A stretch of 18,609 nt of DNA from a virus (taxonomy: Duplodnaviria; Heunggongvirae; Uroviricota; Caudoviricetes): positions 1 through 18,609 of IMG/VR virus record IMGVR_UViG_2534681878_000012. One strand, given 5' to 3'. The notes beneath the pieces are model-generated. The model was given only the letters and a program-made list of their open reading frames with translations. It had not been told where the DNA came from and did not search any database. The number at the start of each line of letters is the position of its first letter. Within the stretch, counting starts at the first letter, position 1. The position numbers were made by a program, and so were the translations under genes. Below, one piece after another: positions 1,307 to 13,118 of this stretch.

Positions 1307-1477
1307 TTATTCAGGTACAGCGATTACTTTTTTTACCGGGAGGCATTCACCAGAAATTTTTTGCTCGTCTCTTGCCTGGAGGCAGGATTCTTTACTGGCA
1401 TAAATTCCGGTAATCACATTCTGTGATTCACCCGTTATAAGAAAAACCGTCATCATCAGTGCAAATGCTGAAGTCAT
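1307..1477 (-). CDS. ydfD: Small protein with hydrophobic N-terminus (56 aa), YdfD-like position downstream of dicB
   Basis: ORF below the track cutoff, found by manual translation: MTSAFALMMTVFLITGESQNVITGIYASKESCLQARDEQKISGECLPVKKVIAVPE. Its ATG overlaps the dicB stop as ATGA, indicating translational coupling. Confidence 0.45.
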   Translation of the reverse strand: MTSAFALMMTVFLITGESQNVITGIYASKESCLQARDEQKISGECLPVKKVIAVPE

Positions 1478-1662
1478 TGACGTTCTCCGAAAATACCAAG
1501 TTCAAGAAGAGCAATTCGGGAAAGTATGGAATTATCATTGAGCAGATAAGGCTCATATTTCCTCATGTTAATGGCATCTTCAGTAAACTCCCGGTTACTG
1601 AGCAGAACACCAATATCAAAACAACCTTCAGACGTATTAACGTTTGGTAATAACGTTTCCAT
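1474..1662 (-). CDS. dicB: DicB-like cell division inhibitor (62 aa)
   Basis: Internal start of track ORF 1474..1767: METLLPNVNTSEGCFDIGVLLSNREFTEDAINMRK... resembles remembered K-12 DicB. GAGG RBS 8 nt upstream; lies directly downstream of DicF as in Qin. Confidence 0.75.
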   Translation of the reverse strand: METLLPNVNTSEGCFDIGVLLSNREFTEDAINMRKYEPYLLNDNSILSRIALLELGIFGERQ

Positions 1663-1831: not shown

Positions 1832-1889
1832 AAAAAGGGCGGCAGAGCAGCCACGGAGTAAAACTGATACCGCCAAACGTCACCAGAAA
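1832..1889 (-). ncRNA. dicF: DicF small regulatory RNA (ftsZ-targeting antisense sRNA of the dicB operon)
   Basis: Minus-strand sequence tttctggtgacgtttggcggtatcagttttactccgtggctgctctgccgcccttttt matches remembered DicF apart from one base, ends in a GC stem plus U-run, and sits between the ydfA-side genes and dicB. Ends are approximate. Confidence 0.8.
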
Positions 1890-2434
1890 ATTGATAACAG
1901 AGGGCGTTGCAGCGGGGTTGTCACTTAAGCGTATGGTCAACCTGACAACCCGGTGTCCTCAATGGGGAAGGAATAACCCCGCCATACTTACCGCCGCGCC
2001 ATTTCGCGGAGTGCCACAACCGGAAGCGCACGTTCGAAGAAATCTAACGACAAGCCTTCTAAGGGAAGAGCTTCGCCGTACGCTTTCGCGTTATGCACTG
2101 ACTTTTCAGGGAAATATCCTTTCAGTAAACTGTCAGTACCGGATTCTTATCCGTGTCCGGCGCACGACCACACGTGACAGCGTGTTGGTCTCCATTTTTA
2201 ACCCAGAACCTCAATGGAGGATAAAATGCCAAACAAAAAAGAAATCCGCTTATTGAAAAACAGATTGAATGCCTGGTAAATCAACTCAGGCAATCAGGGT
2301 TATTAAAAACTCATTCAGAGTTGAGGCTCACAGAATCAGCATTCGACGATAAATTAAATAATGTCCTTTATAATGGCATTATTGATTTTAATCGTTCTGT
2401 TGGTCGCCGCGGCCCTGCTGGTGTTTCCTTATAA

Positions 2435-3073
2435 TTACCAGTCAATCCAGAGTGGACCGTGTTCAGCGTAAATATAACTGTACACATCCAGATTATATTT
2501 GTGGTCTGTTAAGAACAGGCCGCAAATACATGCCGAAGCTTCCAGTGCAGCGGCTCTGTTACTGAATAACCATGTAGCAACATTCCAGCGTTTTTCTGCA
2601 TCCCAGTCTTTCTCAAGGCCTGATACCATGAAGAAACCGTTAGTGTTGCCATCAAATAATTCTGTTTCCAAATTTTTAAGCAATGCCTGATGGACTCTTG
2701 CCAGGTATTCCGCCGGAATTTCGCCACGAATTCTGATGAGATTGTCATAAACAAACATGTTCCCCGCATATGGCGATTTTTCTTTCTTGTTTTTTAAACC
2801 AGCATCATGAGCAAACTGATCAATTTCTTCTTCCGTTGGTTTCGTATTGATGTTTTGCGCTGTCGTTTCTGCAATTTTATTTGCCACACTCTCTGAGTCG
2901 TGTTTATTTATAGACGCACAGAAATACAATCCGGTAAACGCATCGCGCACATTACGAGCCATATTATCAGTGTCTTTTTTCGTTACCGATTCCAATTCAA
3001 GTTCGTTCAGACGATGACGAAGTGTGTGTGCTGCAATCTCCTGGATTGAAGGAGGTAAATCTTTAAATTCCAT
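2435..3073 (-). CDS. Hypothetical soluble protein (212 aa) in the leftward early operon; function unknown
   Basis: Track ORF 2435..3085; preferred start is the second ATG (MEFKDLPPSIQ...) with a GAGG RBS 6 nt upstream. No TM segments or recognisable motifs. Confidence 0.6.
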   Translation of the reverse strand: MEFKDLPPSIQEIAAHTLRHRLNELELESVTKKDTDNMARNVRDAFTGLYFCASINKHDSESVANKIAETTAQNINTKPTEEEIDQFAHDAGLKNKKEKSPYAGNMFVYDNLIRIRGEIPAEYLARVHQALLKNLETELFDGNTNGFFMVSGLEKDWDAEKRWNVATWLFSNRAAALEASACICGLFLTDHKYNLDVYSYIYAEHGPLWIDW

Positions 3074-3084
3074 CGTCAACCTCA

Positions 3085-3237
3085 TCAGTCAGTGTTTCTG
3101 GCTAACCAGCGACGCGCGCCAGCTTCAGTTTTAAACGTTTTGCTTCTGGTATACGTCATCGCGGTAAACGTGCCGTCCTGATTGGGAAACACGCCACATA
3201 CCAGAGATTCGTTGTTGCCAAGATCGATAGTATCCAT
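3085..3237 (-). CDS. ydfA: YdfA-like small protein (50 aa), first gene of the leftward operon
   Basis: Internal start of track ORF 3085..3393: MDTIDLGNNESLVCGVFPNQDGTFTAMTYTRSKTFKTEAGARRWLARNTD. GAGG RBS 5 nt upstream; its stop overlaps the first ATG of the next gene. Confidence 0.55.
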   Translation of the reverse strand: MDTIDLGNNESLVCGVFPNQDGTFTAMTYTRSKTFKTEAGARRWLARNTD

Positions 3238-3313
3238 GCTGACCTCATTTCCCCTTAACGCCGGGGTAGCGGAACTGTTTGCTGAGAACACCGTGCGGTG
3301 TCTTGATGGAGGT

Positions 3314-3364
3314 AATTTAGTTTTCTCATTATTTTTCGTCAAGGCTTTTTGATGAGAAAACTCA
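3314..3364 (-). promoter_or_regulatory. Leftward early promoter (pL-like, dicB-operon promoter) with two repressor operator palindromes
   Basis: Minus strand reads TTGACG (3337-3342), 17-nt spacer, TAAATT (3314-3319). Perfect palindrome TGAGAAAACTCA at 3353-3364 and an 11/12 copy at 3317-3328 overlapping the spacer and -10. Confidence 0.55.
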
Positions 3365-3429
3365 AGTATTGGCGCAAGATAAAGCCAATGCATTGAAATG
3401 TAAGGCTTTAAAATTTTGTGAAGGGATGA

Positions 3430-3837
3430 TTATTGATGCTTGTTGCGTTTGCGAGCCTCTAATAGCTCGGTGAACAGGCGATTAAAATTCTCAACGCGGG
3501 CGCGGAGTTCGCTGAGTTGTGCTTGTTGCTCTGATTTAGGAAGTGCGCGATACAAACGCAACATCTCTAACTCATCTTCCGATAAGTCTAAGGCACTATC
3601 GAGTGAAACAGGGGGAGTTGGTGTTTTGTCCTCGTCGCCAAACAGTATCCAGGTTGGTGAACATTGCAATACCTCGGCGAGGCGATGCAAATTTTGCCCG
3701 CGCGGGGCTGTATGGTCACTTTCCCATAATGAAATTGATGAGCCAGATACGCCAGCAGCTTTGCTTAAACCGTTTTGACTTAAGCCTACCTGCTTACGTC
3801 TTTCTCTAATGCGTTGACCTAAAGTTTTCTCGTTCAT
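3430..3837 (-). CDS. dicA: DicA-like HTH (XRE family) prophage repressor, 135 aa, no peptidase domain
   Basis: Internal start MNEKTLGQRIRERRKQVGLSQ... of track ORF 3430..3888; C-terminal ...LQCSPTWILFGDEDK.PTPPV... matches remembered K-12 DicA. Divergent from the cro-like gene. Confidence 0.8.
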   Translation of the reverse strand: MNEKTLGQRIRERRKQVGLSQNGLSKAAGVSGSSISLWESDHTAPRGQNLHRLAEVLQCSPTWILFGDEDKTPTPPVSLDSALDLSEDELEMLRLYRALPKSEQQAQLSELRARVENFNRLFTELLEARKRNKHQ

Positions 3838-3849
3838 ATTTAGATATCT

Positions 3850-3892
3850 TAATAACCCTTGACTTGAGATTCCTTGAGTGATTAGCATTGAG
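3850..3892 (+). promoter_or_regulatory. Rightward early promoter (pR-like) with overlapping operator palindrome
   Basis: TTGACT at 3850-3855, about 18 nt, TAGCAT at 3874-3879; perfect 14-bp palindrome TTGAGAAAACTCAA at 3879-3892 over the -10 and start region, same core as the two leftward sites. Confidence 0.55.
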
Positions 3893-3914
3893 AAAACTCA
3901 ATATTGGAGGTGCG

Positions 3915-4142
3915 ATGTTTAAATCAGACGTAATTAATTTTTACGGTACGAAAGCCAAAGTAGCGAAAGCTGCTGGCGTTGACCCATCTGCTGTTTCTCA
4001 ATGGCAAGAGCTGGTTCCTGAAGGTCGCGCGATGCGTCTACAGGAGGCATCTGGCGGGGGGCTTCAGTATGATCCCAAAGTTTATGACGAATATCGTAAG
4101 ACGAAGCGGGCGGGGCGGTTGAACAATGAAAATCACTCCTGA
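3915..4142 (+). CDS. dicC: Cro-like DNA-binding protein (DicC/YdaS-like), 75 aa
   Basis: Internal start MFKSDVINFYGTKAKVAKAAG... of track ORF 3888..4142 with GGAGG 8 nt upstream; C-terminal ...VPEGRAMRLQEASGGGLQYDPKVYDEYRKTKRAGRLNNENHS matches remembered DicC. Confidence 0.75.
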   Translation: MFKSDVINFYGTKAKVAKAAGVDPSAVSQWQELVPEGRAMRLQEASGGGLQYDPKVYDEYRKTKRAGRLNNENHS

Positions 4143-4677
4143 ACAGGCTCGTGAGGCTCTGGATGCCTGGATATGTCGACCAGGAATGACACAGGAGCAG
4201 GCGACGATATTAATCACTGAAGCATTCTGGGCTTTGAAAGAGCGCCCGAACATCGATGTTCAGCGTGTCACAGATGAAGGTGGCGCGGTTGATCAGCGAG
4301 CGCTTGGCGTTAATCGAGTGAAGATATTCGAACGCTGGAAGGCTATCGATACTAGGGATAAGCGTGAAAAGTTCACGGCGCTAGTGCCTGCAATTATGGA
4401 GGCTATCCGGATTAATGATTTCAGGTTGTATCGTGAAATTAGTGACGGAAAAAGCATCACGTACATGATCGCCGGGTTAAACAAAGAATATGGCGATGTG
4501 GTGGAGTCCGGGCTGCTTTTTGCGGATCCATCTGTTGTGGAACGTGAGACTGGCGAGCTTATAGAAAAAGCTATTGCTTTCAAGCATGCGTATCGTCAGC
4601 AGTATCAATATTACTTTGCAGATAAACAAATATCTGCCAGGGGTTCGTATGAGTATCGATGCACTACGATGGGCTAA
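4126..4677 (+). CDS. Hypothetical early protein (183 aa) in the cII/YdaT position after cro
   Basis: Track ORF; its start overlaps the 3' end of dicC in another frame. No confident family assignment. Confidence 0.5.
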   Translation: MKITPEQAREALDAWICRPGMTQEQATILITEAFWALKERPNIDVQRVTDEGGAVDQRALGVNRVKIFERWKAIDTRDKREKFTALVPAIMEAIRINDFRLYREISDGKSITYMIAGLNKEYGDVVESGLLFADPSVVERETGELIEKAIAFKHAYRQQYQYYFADKQISARGSYEYRCTTMG

Positions 4678-5230
4678 AAAGGTGAAAACCGGCAGTTCAT
4701 CCAGTAAGTCTGTATTGACCTGGCTTGCTGATATGTGCGGTGCCGATTTGTGTGCATACCCGTCTGTATCTGCACTGGCAGAAGTAACGGAACTGAACAA
4801 AAAGACTGTGCAGGACAGCTTACGACACCTGATGGAGATTGGGTTAATTGTTGATACCGGTGAGAGAAAAGGCAGAACAAAGCAAATTGTGGTGTACCGA
4901 CTTATCGGTGTAGAAGAAAGTGTTGCCGAGCCTGAATACACCCAAAAACGGGTGTCTTTAAAGGTGGGTAAAATTGGTGCTGTTAATAAAAACAGTACCG
5001 AAAACGGTTATGTTTCAGCACAAAAGAGCCCCAAAAACGGAACTCTTTGTTGCATGGAAAATAACCAAAGACACCCAAATTTTCCATCAAAGACACCCAA
5101 AAACGGATCACGGAACCCAAAGGAACCCAAAGATCTAAACCCCACACATAACGCACGCGAGAGTGCTCCGATCAGTGAGCAGGAAGTTTTGTCGTTACAG
5201 GCAGCCCCCATGTATTCCTGGATGGCCTGA
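4649..5230 (+). CDS. Replication initiator (lambda O-like) with N-terminal winged-helix domain and low-complexity linker
   Basis: Internal start MSIDALRWAKKVKTG... with AGGGG RBS 6 nt upstream (track ORF starts at 4574). ...VQDSLRHLMEIGLIVD... is typical of phage initiator N-terminal domains; the linker carries PKNG repeats coinciding with DNA iterons. Confidence 0.6.
   Translation: MSIDALRWAKKVKTGSSSSKSVLTWLADMCGADLCAYPSVSALAEVTELNKKTVQDSLRHLMEIGLIVDTGERKGRTKQIVVYRLIGVEESVAEPEYTQKRVSLKVGKIGAVNKNSTENGYVSAQKSPKNGTLCCMENNQRHPNFPSKTPKNGSRNPKEPKDLNPTHNARESAPISEQEVLSLQAAPMYSWMA
4997..5132. repeat. Iteron-like direct repeats (ACCCAAA(AACGG)), candidate origin of replication inside the O-like gene
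   Basis: Five CCCAAA cores (5030, 5074, 5095, 5115, 5125) plus two degenerate copies (4997, 5064), several extended to ACCCAAAAACGG, at about 10-44 bp spacing. Confidence 0.5.
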
Positions 5231-7355: not shown

Positions 7356-7648
7356 GGGTGAGAGTTTATATTGCCGGTCCAATGACGGGATATGAAAATT
7401 TCAACCGTGAGGCGTTTCACAAGGCGGAAGAGGAACTGAAACGGGAAGGGCATACCGTCTTAACTCCGGCAGTACTTCCGGACGGGCTGACACAGCCGCA
7501 CTACATGGATATTTGCATGGCAATGATTCGTTGTGTGGATGCGATTTACATGCTGAATGGCTGGCAGCGGTCAGCGGGCGCTAAGGCAGAGCTGGCACTG
7601 GCGGAGAAACTGGGGCATGCGGTGATTTATCAGGAGGTGGCTCGATGA
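7352..7648 (+). CDS. DUF4406 / nucleoside 2-deoxyribosyltransferase-like small protein (98 aa)
   Basis: GTG start; N-terminal VYIAGPMTGYENFNREAFHKAEEEL... is the Rossmann-like signature of the NDT/DNPH1-like fold; stop overlaps the next ATG as ATGA. Confidence 0.6.
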   Translation: MRVRVYIAGPMTGYENFNREAFHKAEEELKREGHTVLTPAVLPDGLTQPHYMDICMAMIRCVDAIYMLNGWQRSAGAKAELALAEKLGHAVIYQEVAR

Positions 7649-8020
7649 GAGAGGTTAACTATGAGGCGCTTCGTGAGGCAGCACAAAACTATCAGTCGAC
7701 GCTGGCGTGGTATCAGGCTACCCCGGACAGCCCAAATGCTGAACGGGATTGTGATGCGGCTCTTGCTGCGTTTAAGCGTCATATCCGTCATCGGGAAGCG
7801 GATATTATCGCTGGTAGCTGGTTTGCTGGATGCGCGGGAAGTTCAATTACCGACTCGCTACGACCTTCGATATGGACACCCGATAAATGCAGATGAGCGA
7901 CATGTCATGATACCTAAAGAAAATGGCAGTTGGCTTTACCTGATTGACCTAGAACACGCATTACGCGTCGCTGGCATTCGCATCAAAGGAGAGGAGCATG
8001 GAAATAAAACCAGAGGATGA
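7645..8020 (+). pseudogene. Ead/Ea22-like gene, copy A, apparently frameshifted and shortened
   Basis: MREVNYEALREAAQ... N-terminus (frame of 7645) shares the Ea22-like motif with copy B; conserved C-terminus ...AGIRIKGEEHGNKTR is in the +1 frame (ends 8020). Frame switch lies near 7810-7830; total span about 125 codons versus 239 in copy B. Confidence 0.5.
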
Positions 8021-8354
8021 GTTAAGCAATATCGTTTTATTTCCGGTAAAAGAGGATGACCCTCGTAATCAGGTTAATTTTCTTTATGAGCCATCGGAAA
8101 GACCATATTGTCATCACGCCTCTGTTCGGGTTGACGAAAAAGAGCGCCAGGTCCGCTGTAAAATCTGCGGTGCGGTTGTGGAGCCGTTTGACTGGATGCT
8201 CTCTGTGGCGAAAAGAGAAACCAGACTGGCAGATGATGTAAGGCTATTGCGCCAGGAGGAACAGGAAAGGCGGAAAAATATAGAAAAGTTAATTCAGATT
8301 GAACGTAACGCGAAAGCGCGGATACGCAGGGCGACAAAATCCAGAACTGAATAA
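7998..8354 (+). CDS. Hypothetical protein with putative zinc ribbon (CHH...CxxC), cassette copy A, 118 aa
   Basis: Track ORF; start lies inside the Ea22-like 3' end; about 95% identical to 9696..10052. Confidence 0.65.
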   Translation: MEIKPEDELSNIVLFPVKEDDPRNQVNFLYEPSERPYCHHASVRVDEKERQVRCKICGAVVEPFDWMLSVAKRETRLADDVRLLRQEEQERRKNIEKLIQIERNAKARIRRATKSRTE

Positions 8355-8404
8355 ATAAATTTAGCGCTGTAAATAAAATCTAATCCTGAACTGGAGGTAT
8401 ATTT

Positions 8405-8617
8405 ATGTTAAATACACAGAAAGCCATTAATGCGGAAAAATATAACGAGTGGGCAAGAAAATTCTCTGAGCAGATTTTTAAAATTACTGGCGATGAGAAT
8501 GCGGCAAAAAATGAATTAGAACCGTGGACACCTGAAGGAAACGCACCAAATTATTGCTGGTGGGAGGTTGATCCGGTTGATGTTGCAAATGAAGCCATGA
8601 GTTACCACAACGATTAA
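8405..8617 (+). CDS. Hypothetical small protein (70 aa), cassette copy A
   Basis: Track ORF with GGAGG RBS; about 88% identical to 10101..10313. Confidence 0.65.
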   Translation: MLNTQKAINAEKYNEWARKFSEQIFKITGDENAAKNELEPWTPEGNAPNYCWWEVDPVDVANEAMSYHND

Positions 8618-8621
8618 TGTC

Positions 8622-8833: not shown

Positions 8834-9002
8834 TTTTGGTTCAACTAAATACAGCGTCAGTTTTGAAGAATGGCATGAACTGTTAATGGAATATGCAGAG
8901 TTACGTGGTGGCAGTGCTGCTGATGCTGAAGCATGGCGTGATGATTATGAAGCAGGAAAAAATCCGGTCGAAGCATATTGTGATGAGTGGGGCGATGAAT
9001 GA
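8826..9002 (+). CDS. Small acidic protein (58 aa), not in ORF track
   Basis: Manual translation MADFGSTKYSVSFEEWHELLMEYAELRGGSAADAEAWRDDYEAGKNPVEAYCDEWGDE; start overlaps the previous stop and its stop overlaps the Ea22-like B start as ATGA. Confidence 0.5.
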   Translation: MADFGSTKYSVSFEEWHELLMEYAELRGGSAADAEAWRDDYEAGKNPVEAYCDEWGDE

Positions 9003-9718
9003 GCGAGATTGACTATCAGGCGCTGCGTGAAGCAGCAGAGAAAGCAACTAAAGGATGCTACATCGTAGGGCATACATCGGGCAATCAGCATGGGAATATA
9101 ACAGGAGTTTTTGTTTGTCAAAAATGGAAAGGAGAGCCCGGTGGCGTAATTGCAGAATGTCATGTTAACTGCCTGGTTGAAACAGATGCTCAGGCTTACG
9201 CAAACGCTGAATTTATTGCTGCCTTTAATCCAAATGTTGCGCTGGCACTACTGGATGAACGGGAAAGAAACCAGCAATACATCAAATCACGCGACCAGGA
9301 GAACGAGGAGATTGCGCTTACGGAAGGGAAGCTGCTAATCGAAAACGGCCGGCTTGTTGCCGATACGCTACGCCACTTAGCTGATAACGAAATCGACTCT
9401 GATTATTTTGCTATCACCTCAACGAATGAGAACGGTACTGAAATTGATCATGAGATGGCTATTACCGATTACGCACTGCAAGCTGCCGGAACTGTAGACG
9501 AATTGGTTGCGGCGTTGGAATCCGCAGAGAAGCGCATTGCAGAACTGGAAGCACGGGAAATATCGCTCCCAGAACGTAGCAGCATGCTTCATCGAACAGA
9601 TTTTCACGATGATTACCAAACGGTAATGGCATACAAAGTTTCTGAAGTCATCGCTGCAATCCGCGCCGCTGGCATTCGCATCAAAGGAGAGGAGCATGGA
9701 AATAAAACCAGAAGATGA
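8999..9718 (+). CDS. Ead/Ea22-like family protein, copy B (239 aa, intact)
   Basis: N-terminal MSEIDYQALREAAEKA... and C-terminal ...AGIRIKGEEHGNKTRR typical of the family; track ORF. Confidence 0.7.
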   Translation: MSEIDYQALREAAEKATKGCYIVGHTSGNQHGNITGVFVCQKWKGEPGGVIAECHVNCLVETDAQAYANAEFIAAFNPNVALALLDERERNQQYIKSRDQENEEIALTEGKLLIENGRLVADTLRHLADNEIDSDYFAITSTNENGTEIDHEMAITDYALQAAGTVDELVAALESAEKRIAELEAREISLPERSSMLHRTDFHDDYQTVMAYKVSEVIAAIRAAGIRIKGEEHGNKTRR

Positions 9719-10052
9719 GTTAAGCAATATCGTTTTATTTCCGGTAAAAGAGGATGACCCACGTAATCAGGTTAATTTTCTCTATGAGCCATCGGAAAGA
9801 CCATATTGCCATCACGCCTCTGTCCGGGTTGACGAAAAAGAGCGTCAGGTCCGCTGTAAAATCTGCGGTGCAGTTGTGGAGCCATTTGACTGGATGCTCT
9901 CTGTGGCGAAAAGAGAAACCAGACTGGCAGATGATGTAAGGATCTTGCGCCAGGAGGAACGGGAAAGGCGGAGAAATATAGAAAAGCTAATTCAGATTGA
10001 GCGTAACGTGAAAGCGCGGATACGCAGGGTGACAAAATCCAGAACTGAATAA
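9696..10052 (+). CDS. Hypothetical protein with putative zinc ribbon, cassette copy B, 118 aa
   Basis: Paralog of 7998..8354; same overlap with the Ea22-like 3' end. Confidence 0.65.
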   Translation: MEIKPEDELSNIVLFPVKEDDPRNQVNFLYEPSERPYCHHASVRVDEKERQVRCKICGAVVEPFDWMLSVAKRETRLADDVRILRQEERERRRNIEKLIQIERNVKARIRRVTKSRTE

Positions 10053-10100
10053 TTAAATTTAGCTCTGTTAAAAATTTAATCCTTAACCGGAGGTATATCA

Positions 10101-10313
10101 ATGTCAAACGCACAGAAAGTTATTAACGCTGAAAAATATAACGAGTGGGTGAAAAAGTTCTCAGAGCAGATTTTTAAAATTACTGGCGACGAGAATGCGG
10201 CAAAAAATGAATTAGAGCCGTGGACACCTGAAGGTGTCGACCCAAATTATTGCTGGTGGGATGTTGATCCAGTTGATGCTGCAAATGAAGCTATGAGTTA
10301 TCACAACGATTAA
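10101..10313 (+). CDS. Hypothetical small protein (70 aa), cassette copy B
   Basis: Paralog of 8405..8617 with GGAGG RBS. Confidence 0.65.
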   Translation: MSNAQKVINAEKYNEWVKKFSEQIFKITGDENAAKNELEPWTPEGVDPNYCWWDVDPVDAANEAMSYHND

Positions 10314-10317
10314 TGTC

Positions 10318-10513: not shown

Positions 10514-11227
10514 ATGCACCGAGTCTGCTTAGAAGCTAATCGCTATTTAGATAAATATGACGCGATGGCGAAAGAGGTAAATAAGTTGCTTGGACGCATC
10601 GCCCCGCCAGCGCCAGTATTTAACGGCGAATACGGTGACGCATATCAGGGCGCTCGTGAAGACCTGTCCATCTGGAAACGGCGAGCGCTTGAAGCTGATG
10701 AGCACGTTCGGCGACTGGAGCAAATCAATGACCACATGGTGAAAGAGGCGCAGGGAGAATCACGCATGGGCGAGCCTGTAATACGTGAGCCAGCACCGGT
10801 AGTGCCTGAAGAAGCAACTCCGGAAAACGTAGAAATGCTCTCTGGCTATGTTTCAACGTACAAATTAACCGATAGCGAGCGCGATATTGCTGCCGAAATA
10901 TGGAACGCCTGCCGCGCCGCCATGCTTCAGGCTGGAAACTTTCGGGAAAATAAGGGTTCGTCAACCAATAATTTTCGGGAAATCTCGGAAACGTCAACCA
11001 ACTATCCGGTAACTCCGGATGGTTGGATAAGCTGTAGTGAGCGAATGCCGGATGATGGTCAGCACGTAATTATTTTATGTGATGGCGCATTCGTTCTTTA
11101 TGCGCAATATCGAGACGGTGAGTTTTTTGATGTAGTCCGTAATGGTGATGAATTTTTCGAAACACAGAGCCGCAATGTAACCGACTGGATGCCGCTACCA
11201 GAACCGCCGCAGGAGGTGCGCCAATGA
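10514..11227 (+). CDS. DUF551-domain protein (Ead/Ea22-associated C-terminal domain), 237 aa as drawn
   Basis: C-terminal ...DGWISCSERMPDDGQHVIILCDGAFVLYAQYRDGEFFDV...WMPLPEPP resembles DUF551. No good RBS at 10514; the upstream same-frame sequence is interrupted by two TAG codons (10442, 10472). Confidence 0.55.
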   Translation: MHRVCLEANRYLDKYDAMAKEVNKLLGRIAPPAPVFNGEYGDAYQGAREDLSIWKRRALEADEHVRRLEQINDHMVKEAQGESRMGEPVIREPAPVVPEEATPENVEMLSGYVSTYKLTDSERDIAAEIWNACRAAMLQAGNFRENKGSSTNNFREISETSTNYPVTPDGWISCSERMPDDGQHVIILCDGAFVLYAQYRDGEFFDVVRNGDEFFETQSRNVTDWMPLPEPPQEVRQ

Positions 11228-11307
11228 TCTGGCCTGAAGCCTTTGCAATTACAGGCGTTGCTATAGCTATTGATTTTTTAGTATATGTTATTTGTCGGTG
11301 GGGGTAA
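11224..11307 (+). CDS. Very small hydrophobic peptide (27 aa), not in track
   Basis: MIWPEAFAITGVAIAIDFLVYVICRWG; ATG overlaps the preceding TGA. Confidence 0.35.
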   Translation: MIWPEAFAITGVAIAIDFLVYVICRWG

Positions 11308-11342
11308 AAACGTTCGCCGGGATTCACACCAAAGGAGGGAAT

Positions 11343-11447
11343 ATGTCGGATGATATTTCACTGGCAATGGAAGGTGCGCTGGCTGTTATTGCTGTTGTGG
11401 GCGTTTACTGCCTGGTTGTGTTTTTGATGGATCGACTAGGGAACTGA
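11343..11447 (+). CDS. Small hydrophobic peptide (34 aa), not in track
   Basis: MSDDISLAMEGALAVIAVVGVYCLVVFLMDRLGN with AAGGAGGG RBS 5 nt upstream. Confidence 0.45.
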   Translation: MSDDISLAMEGALAVIAVVGVYCLVVFLMDRLGN

Positions 11448-11635
11448 ATTCATTACGATATGGGAATTCCCATATCGGGTAAAAACGGTTTGCGGTAAAG
11501 CGAGAGTTAAGTAGAATTGCTGCGGGTGCTTGAGGCTATCTGCCTCGGGCATGAACACCAACGGCAGATAGAGAAAAGCCCCAGTTAACATTACGCGTCC
11601 GGCAAGACGCTTAACATTAATCTGAGGCCATATCT

Positions 11636-11848
11636 ATGCTCTACACACGTAGGTTAGCCTCTTACGTGCCGAAAGGCAAGGAGAAGCAGGCTATGAAGCA
11701 GCAAAAGGCGATGCTAATCGCCCTGATCGTCATCTGTTTAACCGTCATAGTGACGGCACTGGTAACGAGGAAAGACCTCTGCGAGGTACGAATCCGAACC
11801 GGCCAGACGGAGGTCGCTGTCTTCACAGCTTACGAACCTGAGGAGTAA
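11636..11848 (+). CDS. hokD: Hok/Gef-family type I toxin (51-aa core from 11693) with in-frame Mok-like N-terminal extension
   Basis: Core MKQQKAMLIALIVICLTVIVTALVTRKDLCEVRIRTGQTEVAVFTAYEPEE matches remembered HokD/RelF. Structured leader (9-bp inverted repeat 11536-11544 / 11563-11571) and 3' stem-loop as in hok mRNAs. Confidence 0.8.
   Translation: MLYTRRLASYVPKGKEKQAMKQQKAMLIALIVICLTVIVTALVTRKDLCEVRIRTGQTEVAVFTAYEPEE
11644..11679 (-). promoter_or_regulatory. Putative Sok-like antisense RNA promoter opposite the mok/hok start
   Basis: Minus strand reads TTGCCT (11674-11679), 17 nt, TAACCT (11651-11656); transcription would run leftward across the 11636 start. Inferred by analogy with hok/sok. 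Confidence 0.35.
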
Positions 11849-11855
11849 GAGACCT

Positions 11856-11877
11856 GGCGAGGGAGAAATCCCTCGCC
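11856..11877 (+). other. Perfect 9-bp stem-loop with GAAA loop just after the hok stop
   Basis: GGCGAGGGA-GAAA-TCCCTCGCC with no U-run; a weaker hairpin plus T-rich tract follows at about 11919-11945. Confidence 0.5.
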
Positions 11878-11950
11878 ACCTCTGATGTGTCAGGCATCCT
11901 CAACGCACCCGCACTTAACCTGCTTCGGCGGGTTTTGTTGTATTAGAATA

Positions 11951-12268
11951 TCAGGATATTACCTGGATCCCGTTTTTCTCGACAACTGAAAGAAGCCGAA
12001 GAGCTGCACCTCCCGGGCGTTTCACTCCTCGTTCCCAGTCTGATATCAGGTTTTTACTGACGTTGAGGTATCTGGCAAAAACAGGTTGAGACAGATGCTC
12101 TCGTTCTCGCAGTGCACGGATCCTTTCCGGAGACATTACCGGCGCAGGCTGAAGACAAGTTTCATCGAATTCGCGCATAGTTTGTTTTGTGATTGCACCG
12201 ATATCATGGAGTGACTCCATCATTTCATGTACAGATGCAAGTGCATCACTGCGGTAATTTTTACTCAT
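11951..12268 (-). CDS. HTH (XRE-like) antitoxin, HigA-2-like architecture (C-terminal HTH), 105 aa
   Basis: Track ORF; C-terminal ...SQPVFARYLNVSKNLISDWERGVKRP... is HTH-like; lies downstream of and overlaps the toxin by 8 nt. Confidence 0.65.
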   Translation of the reverse strand: MSKNYRSDALASVHEMMESLHDIGAITKQTMREFDETCLQPAPVMSPERIRALREREHLSQPVFARYLNVSKNLISDWERGVKRPGGAALRLLSVVEKNGIQVIS

Positions 12269-12632
12269 TGGGTACCTCCGTGAACTGGCCTTGTTGAATC
12301 AATTGTGCCAGCTGTTCATCAGTAAGATTGAGGACATGGGGAGCGGCTTTTCGAAAAGCATTTTCCTCTATAGCAGTGATATTCTCTCGTTCATTCTTTG
12401 CGTATGCGTAGATGAAAAAGGCTTTTTCTGCAACGCGGTAAAAAATTATTGTCCGGTAACCGCCTGATTTTCCGCCACCACTTCGGGCTAATCTTTGTTT
12501 AATGACACCACTACCCAAATTTGCGGATATGATCCCCTTATCGGCCTGCTCCACGATTTTGCGCAGCGATTTATCGGAAATCCGATGTTTTCGGGCGAAA
12601 CGTTCAAACCAGGCGTTTTTGAAAATTCGCAT
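12261..12632 (-). CDS. RelE/ParE-superfamily toxin, HigB-2-like, 123 aa
   Basis: Motif ...RLARSGGGKSGGYRTIIFYRVAEKAFFIYAYAKNERENI... resembles remembered Vibrio HigB-2; toxin-first order is typical of HigBA modules. Confidence 0.65.
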   Translation of the reverse strand: MRIFKNAWFERFARKHRISDKSLRKIVEQADKGIISANLGSGVIKQRLARSGGGKSGGYRTIIFYRVAEKAFFIYAYAKNERENITAIEENAFRKAAPHVLNLTDEQLAQLIQQGQFTEVPNE

Positions 12633-12652
12633 ACCTGCCTCTGCATTTTATA

Positions 12653-12667
12653 TAACACATAGTGTTA
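12653..12667. promoter_or_regulatory. Inverted repeat TAACAC-ATA-GTGTTA upstream of the toxin gene, candidate autoregulatory operator
   Basis: Perfect 6-bp arms with 3-bp spacer, 21 bp upstream of the toxin start codon. Confidence 0.5.
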
Positions 12668-12855
12668 CACCATGTGGACTATGGAGGCAATCTTTATTTG
12701 AGAATGCTTGCTGATTTATCGGTGTTCAAAAAACAGACGTAATTCAGATTGTATAAACGGCAGACAGAAAAAGTCATTGTTCTTGCGCATAAAATCCTCA
12801 GATTTACTGAGTGAAATGCGTCTCTTTTCATGGTTATAGTCCGAGAGAAGCGATA

Positions 12856-13083
12856 ATGCATTTCATTTCCTTTACGTCAGGAGGTGTTGTGAAAATCCCA
12901 GCCAGTTTGATCCCGGGGTTTTATGAGAGCACGCGCCCGGTTGTTGTTTACAGAAACAGTGATGGTTCTTTTCAATGTGGTTTTGTTATGCGAAGTAATG
13001 AGGTTGTTGTAAGCCTTTCTCTTCTTTCTGAGGTAAGAGAGTTGGCAGGATTACCTGTTGATGATATTCAGAAGCAGCTATAA
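12856..13083 (+). CDS. Hypothetical small protein (rem-like position upstream of ydfU)
   Basis: Track ORF 12811..13083; possible starts GTG 12811, ATG 12856, or GTG 12889 with GGAGG RBS. Confidence 0.45.
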   Translation: MHFISFTSGGVVKIPASLIPGFYESTRPVVVYRNSDGSFQCGFVMRSNEVVVSLSLLSEVRELAGLPVDDIQKQL

Positions 13084-13118
13084 AATCAGGCTGACTTGAA
13101 CCGTCGCTGAGAAACACC

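Follow-up and report, generated by a model that had tools for sequence, protein, structure and literature searches.

The window analyzed here, the whole stretch of 18,609 nucleotides from the IMG/VR virus record IMGVR_UViG_2534681878_000012, very probably carries, at a variable slot of a lambdoid prophage resembling Qin, two toxin-antitoxin modules that are independent of each other and arranged tail to tail: a type I hok/mok/sok locus on the plus strand, which reads as complete, and, convergent with it, a type II operon with the toxin gene first that is assigned to the HigBA2 type. The prophage is of the Qin-like lambdoid type of enterohaemorrhagic Escherichia coli; over its whole 18.6 kb the window is 99.9% identical to E. 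coli O157 strain FDAARGOS_293, and positions 11200..12900 are 100% identical to many chromosomes of O157, O145, and other Shiga-toxin-producing E. coli (STEC), and 200 of the 5426 complete E. coli genomes have at least 80% of this segment. The slot is bordered by replication and ead genes on one side and by the ydfU-rusA-Q genes on the other. Both toxin families are well known, and RefSeq/PGAP already names hokD and calls the type II toxin a RelE/ParE family toxin; the antitoxin is given there only as a 'helix-turn-helix domain-containing protein', and in PHROGs both proteins of the pair are listed as unknown. What is new is the assignment to HigB2 and HigA2, the candidate operator, and the analysis of the slot, which make a useful annotation and no surprise.

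A HigBA2-type toxin-antitoxin pair

An earlier note on this DNA, made from its letters without database searches, had proposed a HigB-2/HigA-2-like toxin-then-antitoxin pair and had named a family search of 12261..12632 and 11951..12268 as a check on it. That search bore the proposal out. The toxin (12261..12632, minus strand, 123 amino acids) matches the Pfam 'RelE' family PF06296 with an E-value of 1.4e-47 and 161 bits, against a cut-off of 27, over profile positions 1-120 of 120; the antitoxin (11951..12268, minus strand, 105 amino acids) matches HTH_3 over its residues 50-94. PF06296 is the only Pfam match of the toxin, and it was also present in 120 of the 120 matches listed from 1418 toxin homologues, which are broadly spread, with representatives in Salmonella, Chromatiaceae, Halomonas, and cyanobacteria. 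In a 2025 survey of the RelE/ParE superfamily, the members of PF06296 are called HigB2 and are described by a toxin-antitoxin gene order and ribosome-dependent mRNA cleavage, PF05015 or PF09907 being assigned there to HigB types and PF05016 to K-12 RelE.

The best solved relatives of both proteins point the same way. For the toxin they are chains of Vibrio cholerae HigB-2 (VcHigB2), with an E-value of 4.2e-4 from the single sequence and 1.1e-4 from a profile, the alignment-profile search of the PDB being thus scarcely better than the single-sequence one; for the antitoxin the best is V. cholerae HigA-2 (VcHigA2), with an E-value of 6.7e-8 over residues 45-99. The similarity to V. cholerae HigBA2 (PDB 5JA8, 5JAA, 8A0X) is low (toxin E 4e-4; antitoxin 7e-8, in the helix-turn-helix only), and the V. 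cholerae operon lies in a superintegron and the window's pair in a prophage; common to both, nevertheless, are PF06296, the toxin-first order, the aligned catalytic set of R, R, Y, and K, a Gly/Lys-rich β2-β3 loop, and the layout of the antitoxin, which has 105 amino acids in the window and 104 in VcHigA2 and consists in each case of an N-terminal extension and, at the C-terminus, a helix-turn-helix of the XRE type. The residues of VcHigB2 found important by mutagenesis, R51, R64, Y82, and K84, align to R47, R60, Y77, and K79 of the window's toxin, and the Gly-rich β2-β3 loop reads ARSGGGKSGGY. Among 36 toxin homologues neither R60 nor K79 varies, and R47 is almost invariant; at position 77 the clade of E. 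coli prophages has Tyr, but most others have Phe there and conserve Tyr75 of the same strand. The toxin is predicted from these features to be a RelE-like, ribosome-dependent mRNA endonuclease.

The antitoxin comprises an N-terminal extension of about 44 amino acids and the C-terminal XRE helix-turn-helix, and matches phrog_2104 in PHROGs with an E-value of 5e-43. Its first 44 residues have no detectable sequence similarity to VcHigA2, and disorder and toxin binding of this part are putative. The toxin gene precedes the antitoxin gene with an 8-nt overlap (ATGAGTAA), and the antitoxin Shine-Dalgarno sequence, GGAGG, sits within the 3′ end of the toxin gene. An assignment of the antitoxin to MqsA was rejected: it scores 18 bits in NCBIfam, where the cut-off is 30, and it has no zinc-finger N-domain.

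Other toxins of the RelE/ParE superfamily, such as those of Rts1 HigBA from Proteus vulgaris and of K-12 RelBE, are likewise ribosome-dependent mRNases, and Rts1 HigBA is also arranged with the toxin first. RelBE has the antitoxin gene first and a ribbon-helix-helix antitoxin. A K-12 RelBE type for the pair was rejected in view of its toxin-first order, the match to PF06296 only, and the XRE helix-turn-helix of its antitoxin. The NCBIfam scan returned no specific model for the toxin, the antitoxin matched nothing in PADLOC but generic helix-turn-helix models, its helix-turn-helix and MqsA-like matches in the two scans fell below threshold, and the literature searches found no experimental study of the E. 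coli pair.

The putative operator of the pair

Upstream of the toxin gene, 18 to 37 nt from its ATG, there is an imperfect 19-bp inverted repeat at 12651..12669, TGTAACAC-TAT-GTGTTATA in the minus-strand reading, which is a putative HigA2 operator. Its core is the perfect palindrome TAACAC-ATA-GTGTTA at 12653..12667, which had been taken in the earlier note for the operator of the pair. The palindrome is indeed present, and the island around it is conserved: the same 19 nt recur in E. coli O104:H4 (comparison record L005) and in phage PhiR12_3 (L007), where the copies of the pair are 84% identical and the flanks unrelated, and a variant of the repeat is found in record L006, whose antitoxin is 92% identical. 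It is because this 19-nt island is conserved that the operator idea is kept. The operator mapped in V. cholerae covers the -10 element with one inverted repeat spanning 19 bp; the candidate in the window has this span, is likewise a single inverted repeat, and would lie near the promoter, and it differs in sequence, with TGTAACAC-N3-GTGTTATA in the window and TGTACGC-N5-GCGTACA in V. cholerae.

Several results weigh against a HigBA2-type operon with this operator, and they are taken together here. As to the toxin, no defense model of PADLOC-DB 2.0 matches it (or Hok). As to the operator, the matches to protein and RNA families greatly exceed chance, but the palindrome by itself does not, 45% of composition-matched random sequences of 256 nt holding at least one inverted repeat with 6-bp arms; an automated repeat search also reported nothing at its length threshold. 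Furthermore, the base-contacting residues of VcHigA2, R68, E71, N72, and R77, align to N73, S76, D77, and V82 and are not conserved, so that the operator assignment is one of position and conservation only. The promoter hexamers of the pair are poor matches to the consensus; no convincing consensus promoter was found for it, and TTGCCT (12690-12685) with an extended -10 is offered as a tentative reading. The differences in operator sequence and in contact residues fit a repressor of different specificity.

Distribution of the pair and decay of its toxin

The pair is present in 214 of the 5426 complete E. coli genomes (about 4%), always on the chromosome and mostly in STEC. Among its relatives, frameshifted toxins occur in L005 (two), in L007 (one), and in L008 and its lineage, whose toxin gene is longer by one C (+1) within a C4 run (window ~12533; L008 ~3090); in all three the antitoxin is intact and 90 to 100% identical. 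A 67-nt probe over the C run matched the window in 112 of 168 close alleles and differed in 56, the frameshift counts derived from this probe being upper bounds, and a split toxin annotation was seen in two of four rows sampled from the differing band. These data can be read in two ways. The pair may be a decaying remnant, its toxin weak or inactive and its antitoxin retained by selection, either to act alone as an orphan repressor or to counter related toxins as an anti-addiction factor, and both the repeated frameshifts beside an intact antitoxin and the differing third of the close alleles favor such a view. This is considered unlikely, given that the toxin in the window is full length over the family profile and retains the four residues of the catalytic set together with the Gly-rich loop, that the 112 alleles are identical to it across the 67 nt, and that recurrent toxin loss is what would be expected of an active and costly toxin. 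The repeated loss of the toxin with an intact antitoxin thus suggests, indirectly, that an intact toxin is costly, and an active HigBA2-type operon is the reading retained here for the window.

Two further observations concern the same run of C residues. In a lineage of non-O157 STEC (e.g., O104:H21 and O22:H8) the additional C splits the toxin into two coding sequences beside an antitoxin that is 100% identical, and a C4 homopolymer in the toxin gene could in principle permit reversible on/off switching.

The hok/mok/sok locus

Upstream of the pair and facing it, the hok locus reads as a complete type I hok/mok/sok system with a promoter, a tac-fbi helix, mok, a Sok promoter and hairpin, and a terminator. 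The toxin gene itself (11693..11848, plus strand, 51 amino acids) matches Pfam HOK_GEF above its cut-off with an E-value of 2.9e-23 and, in PHROGs, phrog_251 (MokW-like host killing, E 2.8e-33); matches to the Hok models of NCBIfam fall below the curated cut-offs. Its RefSeq accession, WP_000813254.1, is that of K-12 HokD/RelF (in K-12 J53, in the source genomes of the window, and in PGAP), which confirms the HokD-like toxin recognized beforehand at this position.

The predicted full-length hok mRNA (11524..11940, plus strand, about 417 nt) has ends that come from the fold and from the start of the Rfam match. A putative promoter was read from the sequence at 11490..11517 (plus strand), with a -35 element TTGCGG (11490-11495), a 16-nt spacer, and a -10 element TAGAAT (11512-11517), and a transcript start near 11524, the first base of the Rfam model match, is plausible; the consensus promoter scan did not list this promoter, whose -35 element matches at three of six positions only. 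The segment 11524..11940 has a minimum free energy of -174.5 kcal/mol (z = -7.4 against 100 shuffles), and in both the minimum-free-energy and the centroid fold the tac element (11524-11535) pairs with fbi (11898-11910) through 12 pairs with one bulge. The Rfam sok model RF01794 matches 11524..11698 in full on the sense strand of hok with 111.7 bits (gathering score 59), and the alignment carries a 16-nt insertion at 11594-11609, in one leader hairpin. As the matched strand is the sense strand of hok and the match stops at the hok ATG, the model describes the mRNA leader that is complementary to Sok. Within the leader begins a mok-like reading frame (11636..11848, plus strand, 70 amino acids), which extends hok in frame at its 5′ side and has GAGG 9 nt upstream of its ATG. 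Downstream of hok, the 3′ untranslated region has a 9-bp hairpin with a GAAA tetraloop (11856..11877, plus strand; sequence reading and minimum-free-energy fold), followed by an intrinsic terminator (11917..11944, plus strand) with a 7-bp stem and then TTTTGTTGTATT, whose end is 6 nt from the stop codon of the higA2-like gene on the opposite strand.

On the minus strand, the Sok promoter (11651..11679) has a -35 element TTGCCT (11679-11674), a 17-nt spacer, and a -10 element TAACCT (11656-11651). The predicted Sok antisense RNA (11568..11643, minus strand, about 76 nt, with putative ends) would have a single-stranded 5′ end, a long hairpin, and a GGGGCUUUUCUCU tail. The region of mok translation initiation is complementary to this RNA, and a 91-nt stretch over it folds with -35.6 kcal/mol (z = -4.9). 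The structured leader, the Sok promoter, and the 3′ GAAA stem-loop that had been proposed from the letters alone were thus all recovered.

Codon 47 of hok (window 11831-11834) is TAC followed by G, i.e., UACG, and UACG is the TadA core motif. According to a preprint, TadA edits A to I in the mRNAs of hokC, hokD, and hokE, by which the codon of this C-terminal Tyr is changed to one for Cys, a change of importance for toxicity (10.1101/2025.08.07.668861).

Relation to hokW-sokW and other hok loci

The hok locus of the window reads as a near-identical paralogue of hokW-sokW, which is carried by Sakai prophage 5, an Stx2 phage of E. coli O157:H7, and is thus also a hok/sok locus of a lambdoid prophage with a toxin of 51 amino acids. 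Four published primers or probes for hokW match the window exactly, at 11530-54, 11522-70, 11882-906, and 11681-52 (PMC8621323), and together they cover the mRNA at its 5′ end and its 3′ fbi region as well as the region of the Sok promoter. The same small open reading frame (ORF) lies upstream in both, primer YO-432 beginning at its homologue. The 5′ end of primer YO-421, as its sequence reads in that source, replaces AGGTTA on the plus strand, that is, TAACCT on the minus strand, the Sok -10 element of the window; with this primer a 'pro-less' sokW mutant was built, which has, according to the legend of Fig. 1E, an altered sequence around the sokW -10 element (PMC8621323). The two loci differ at the C-terminus of Hok (..TAYEPEE in the window, ..VDYESEK in HokW), in the stretch targeted by Sok (probe YO-592 for hokW-sokW against window 11616-11645), and in the downstream neighbor, which in the window, unlike hokW-sokW, is a type II pair. 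The differences in the Hok C-terminus and the Sok target suggest that the window locus has a Sok specificity of its own, and the Sok RNAs of the two loci are probably not interchangeable.

hokW-sokW is a proven type I toxin-antitoxin system, in which HokW is toxic and is neutralized by Sok (Takada et al. 2021, PMC8621323); mitomycin C removes the sokW RNA, HokW is then made in a RecA-dependent manner, and deletion of hokW-sokW halves phage release (PMC8621323). More remote is hok/sok of plasmid R1, with which the window shares hok, an overlapping mok, an antisense Sok, the tac-fbi fold-back, and the 3′ hairpin; it differs from R1 in that mok is an in-frame extension of hok, in the 16-nt insertion of the leader hairpin, and in its location on a prophage, not a plasmid. 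Protein identity between HokW and R1 Hok is only 44% (PMC8621323), and plasmid hok loci have about 81% DNA similarity to the window over 11624..11697, which holds the mok start and the Sok promoter.

A 491-nt query with the hok locus (11460..11950) was covered to at least 80% in 3861 of the 5426 genomes, with a median of two and a maximum of ten matching places in the genomes that matched, and matches to it were also obtained in 102 phage records, Shiga-toxin (Stx) phages accounting for many of these. The number of matching places per genome suggests redundancy and fits the alternative that the hok locus is silent and a hitch-hiking relic, silence being reported for hok loci on the chromosomes of K-12, E. 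coli C, and ECOR24; so does the finding, which also weighs against an active locus here, that chromosomal hok loci of laboratory strains (hokA, hokB, and hokC) are reported to show no post-segregational killing (10.1101/2025.08.07.668861). A relic is nonetheless held to be improbable, since all the regulatory elements are intact in the window, in contrast to K-12 hokD, which is without Sok, mok, and tac, and since the near-identical hokW-sokW is toxic, is neutralized by Sok, and makes its Hok upon induction (PMC8621323). A functional hok/mok/sok locus is accordingly the preferred reading, on the intactness of its parts and the behavior of its paralogue.

Beyond these comparisons, hok copies of 88 to 90% identity are found on plasmids of E. 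coli, E. fergusonii, and Shigella with sizes of about 94-372 kb, most of them about 94-118 kb, and a copy of 96% identity is carried by the record PP818812, an 'Actinobacillus phage', which is odd for the host named.

An exchange slot downstream of hok

Comparison with K-12 places the two modules in the history of the prophage. K-12 hokD (relF) lies in the Qin prophage, of the same family as the window, and in both the ydfU gene (DUF968) follows downstream. The earlier note had stated that in K-12 hokD follows relBE in the same orientation, and the J53 record agrees, relB, relE, and hokD being co-oriented; from this it had proposed that the inverted pair of the window occupies the relBE slot, as a result of module exchange. 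The homology breakpoints contradict the location. Homology to K-12 begins only at 11679, which is 14 nt short of the hok ATG, breaks off after 11939, and is found again from 13105 onward; the segment 11679..11939, including the 3′ untranslated region and terminator, is 97.7% identical. In K-12 relBE lies upstream of hokD, which therefore has lost its promoter, tac, the beginning of mok, and both the target and the -10 element of Sok, and hokD is followed by rem, where the window has the HigBA2-type block. The pair as a replacement of relBE was rejected on these breakpoints, which put relBE upstream and the pair downstream of hok. Exchange as such is upheld by the same comparison: the sequences indicate that a cassette exchange took place, but at the slot downstream of hok and against the rem block, not relBE. 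The window shows what the crippled hokD of K-12 was like before relBE displaced its leader.

The exchanged cassette is a mosaic block of 1165 bp (11940..13104), delimited by breakpoints against records L002, L003, and L004, and comprises the higA2-like and higB2-like genes, their promoter region, and an ORF at 12889..13083; it stands in place of the 409-bp rem block of K-12-type prophages. Elsewhere the slot is empty (L010), holds rem (L003 and L004), or, in O104:H4, holds, in addition to the HigBA2-type pair, a toxin gene of the death-on-curing (Doc) family that is preceded by a small ORF. The stretch downstream of hok in Qin-like prophages is thus an exchange slot that may be empty or filled with rem, with a HigBA2-type pair, or with Phd/Doc-type and HigBA2-type modules together. 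In the O104:H4 record (L005, strain 2009EL-2071), hokD, the small ORF with the Doc-family toxin, and the HigBA2-type pair follow each other consecutively at 2407-4135.

The ORF at 12889..13083 (plus strand, 64 amino acids, WP_000701093.1) has a GTG start with an AGGAGG Shine-Dalgarno sequence, is divergent from the toxin gene, and matches phrog_31309, of unknown function, over its full length with an E-value of 7e-48. It accompanies the close allele of the pair (window, L001, and L008) and not the diverged copies L005, L006, and L007.

L006 and phage PhiR12_3 have the pair but no hok, and thousands of genomes have hok but not the pair; the modules are regarded as independent because each occurs without the other, and on the same ground the view that hok and the pair are obligately linked in function was rejected as the leading interpretation. 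That the two form one coupled unit, either through antisense control by read-through from higBA2 or as a two-toxin abortive-infection system, is very improbable, for although they are adjacent in about 200 genomes with convergent 3′ ends 6 nt apart, the terminator scan of the minus strand gave no terminator-like site downstream of the antitoxin gene, and O104:H4 has three toxin modules in a row in the same region, these roughly 200 co-occurrences are almost all one cassette of 99 to 100% identity, which argues for shared descent and not repeated association, each module is found alone, and a preprint found hok not to be enriched near defense systems (10.1101/2025.08.07.668861). The particular form of coupling in which higBA2 transcripts would read into the 3′ end of hok, pair with fbi and the coding region, and affect the unlocking of the hok mRNA is given an equally slight chance.

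Proposed mode of action and role of the modules

The mechanisms proposed for the two independent modules come from applying the established behavior of hok/sok and of VcHigBA2 to the parts found in the window. The hok mRNA (~11524 to ~11940) would be held closed and untranslatable by the tac-fbi pairing until slow trimming at the 3′ end led to its refolding, upon which mok would be translated and hok by coupling to it; the short-lived Sok (~11643 to 11568, minus strand) would pair with the mok start region and block translation, and once Sok was lost the 51-residue Hok would enter the inner membrane and kill or lyse the cell. In the pair, the toxin gene would be translationally coupled to the antitoxin gene, the toxin would act as a RelE-like ribosome-dependent mRNA endonuclease, the N-terminal extension of the antitoxin would neutralize it, and the C-terminal helix-turn-helix dimer would repress the operon at the single 19-bp repeat, which would overlap the promoter. 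From these precedents we infer toxicity, neutralization, transcript ends, autoregulation, and biological role.

As to the latter, the role is most likely a prophage-selfish one, with help in lysis on induction, as shown for hokW-sokW, and/or addiction or defense; the single experiment on a near-identical prophage hok locus, that on hokW-sokW, points to help with lysis and with phage release. A role in abortive infection or in prophage stabilization is plausible, and exclusion of other phages is possible; hok/sok of R1 lowers the plating of T4, in a study cited in PMC8621323. If it is true that the pair or hok affects induction, lysis timing, or superinfection, this would bear on the release of phage and Shiga toxin in STEC. 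The HigA2/HigB2 assignment and the candidate operator, for their part, provide a testable annotation for the pair, the practical value of which is modest.

Small ORFs upstream of hok and other features of the prophage

Within 11224..11447 two small hydrophobic peptide genes had been noticed just upstream of hok, and both ORFs are present and conserved in diverged copies. Small ORF 1 (11224..11307, plus strand, 27 amino acids) encodes one hydrophobic helix, its start overlapping the stop of the DUF551 gene (ATGA), and is kept in L005 and also in L010, whose copy has lost 6 nt in frame. Small ORF 2 (11343..11447, plus strand, 34 amino acids, WP_001278450.1) likewise encodes one hydrophobic helix, has an AGGAGG Shine-Dalgarno sequence 6 nt upstream, and differs between the window and L010 by five synonymous and two conservative changes. 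Neither has a match in Pfam, NCBIfam, or PHROGs, and only small ORF 2 is annotated by PGAP, as a hypothetical protein; the block of small ORFs is present in 680 of the 5426 genomes. That the two small membrane peptides might be further components of the hok module is a weaker variant of the reading in which neighboring elements are coupled.

The gene order of the window as a whole begins with an exonuclease gene, dicB, and DicF, continues with the repressor gene, cro, ydaT, and the replication genes, passes through ead/Ea22-like genes, the DUF551 gene, a small ORF, hokD, and the two leftward genes, and ends with two small ORFs, the DUF968 (ydfU-like) gene, rusA, and Q. The DicF small RNA (1837-1888, minus strand, 75 bits in Rfam) lies upstream of dicB (~1474-1662, minus strand), and a gene of the YdaT family is found at ~4128-4679; together with DicF and dicB it represents further host-inhibiting prophage functions beside the two toxin modules. 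A tandem duplication at ~7648-8620 and ~9002-10316 consists of diverged copies of a three-gene block with an ead/Ea22-like gene, a 357-nt ORF, and a 213-nt ORF, the first ead copy being frameshifted. Rfam also identifies STnc100 at 16433-16623 (plus strand, 145 bits) and AgvB, a prophage-encoded anti-GcvB small RNA, at 16624-16685 (minus strand, 96.5 bits, a perfect match to the model); AgvB abuts STnc100 on the opposite strand, and the two are flanked by the DUF3927 gene and the gene of the SASA esterase.

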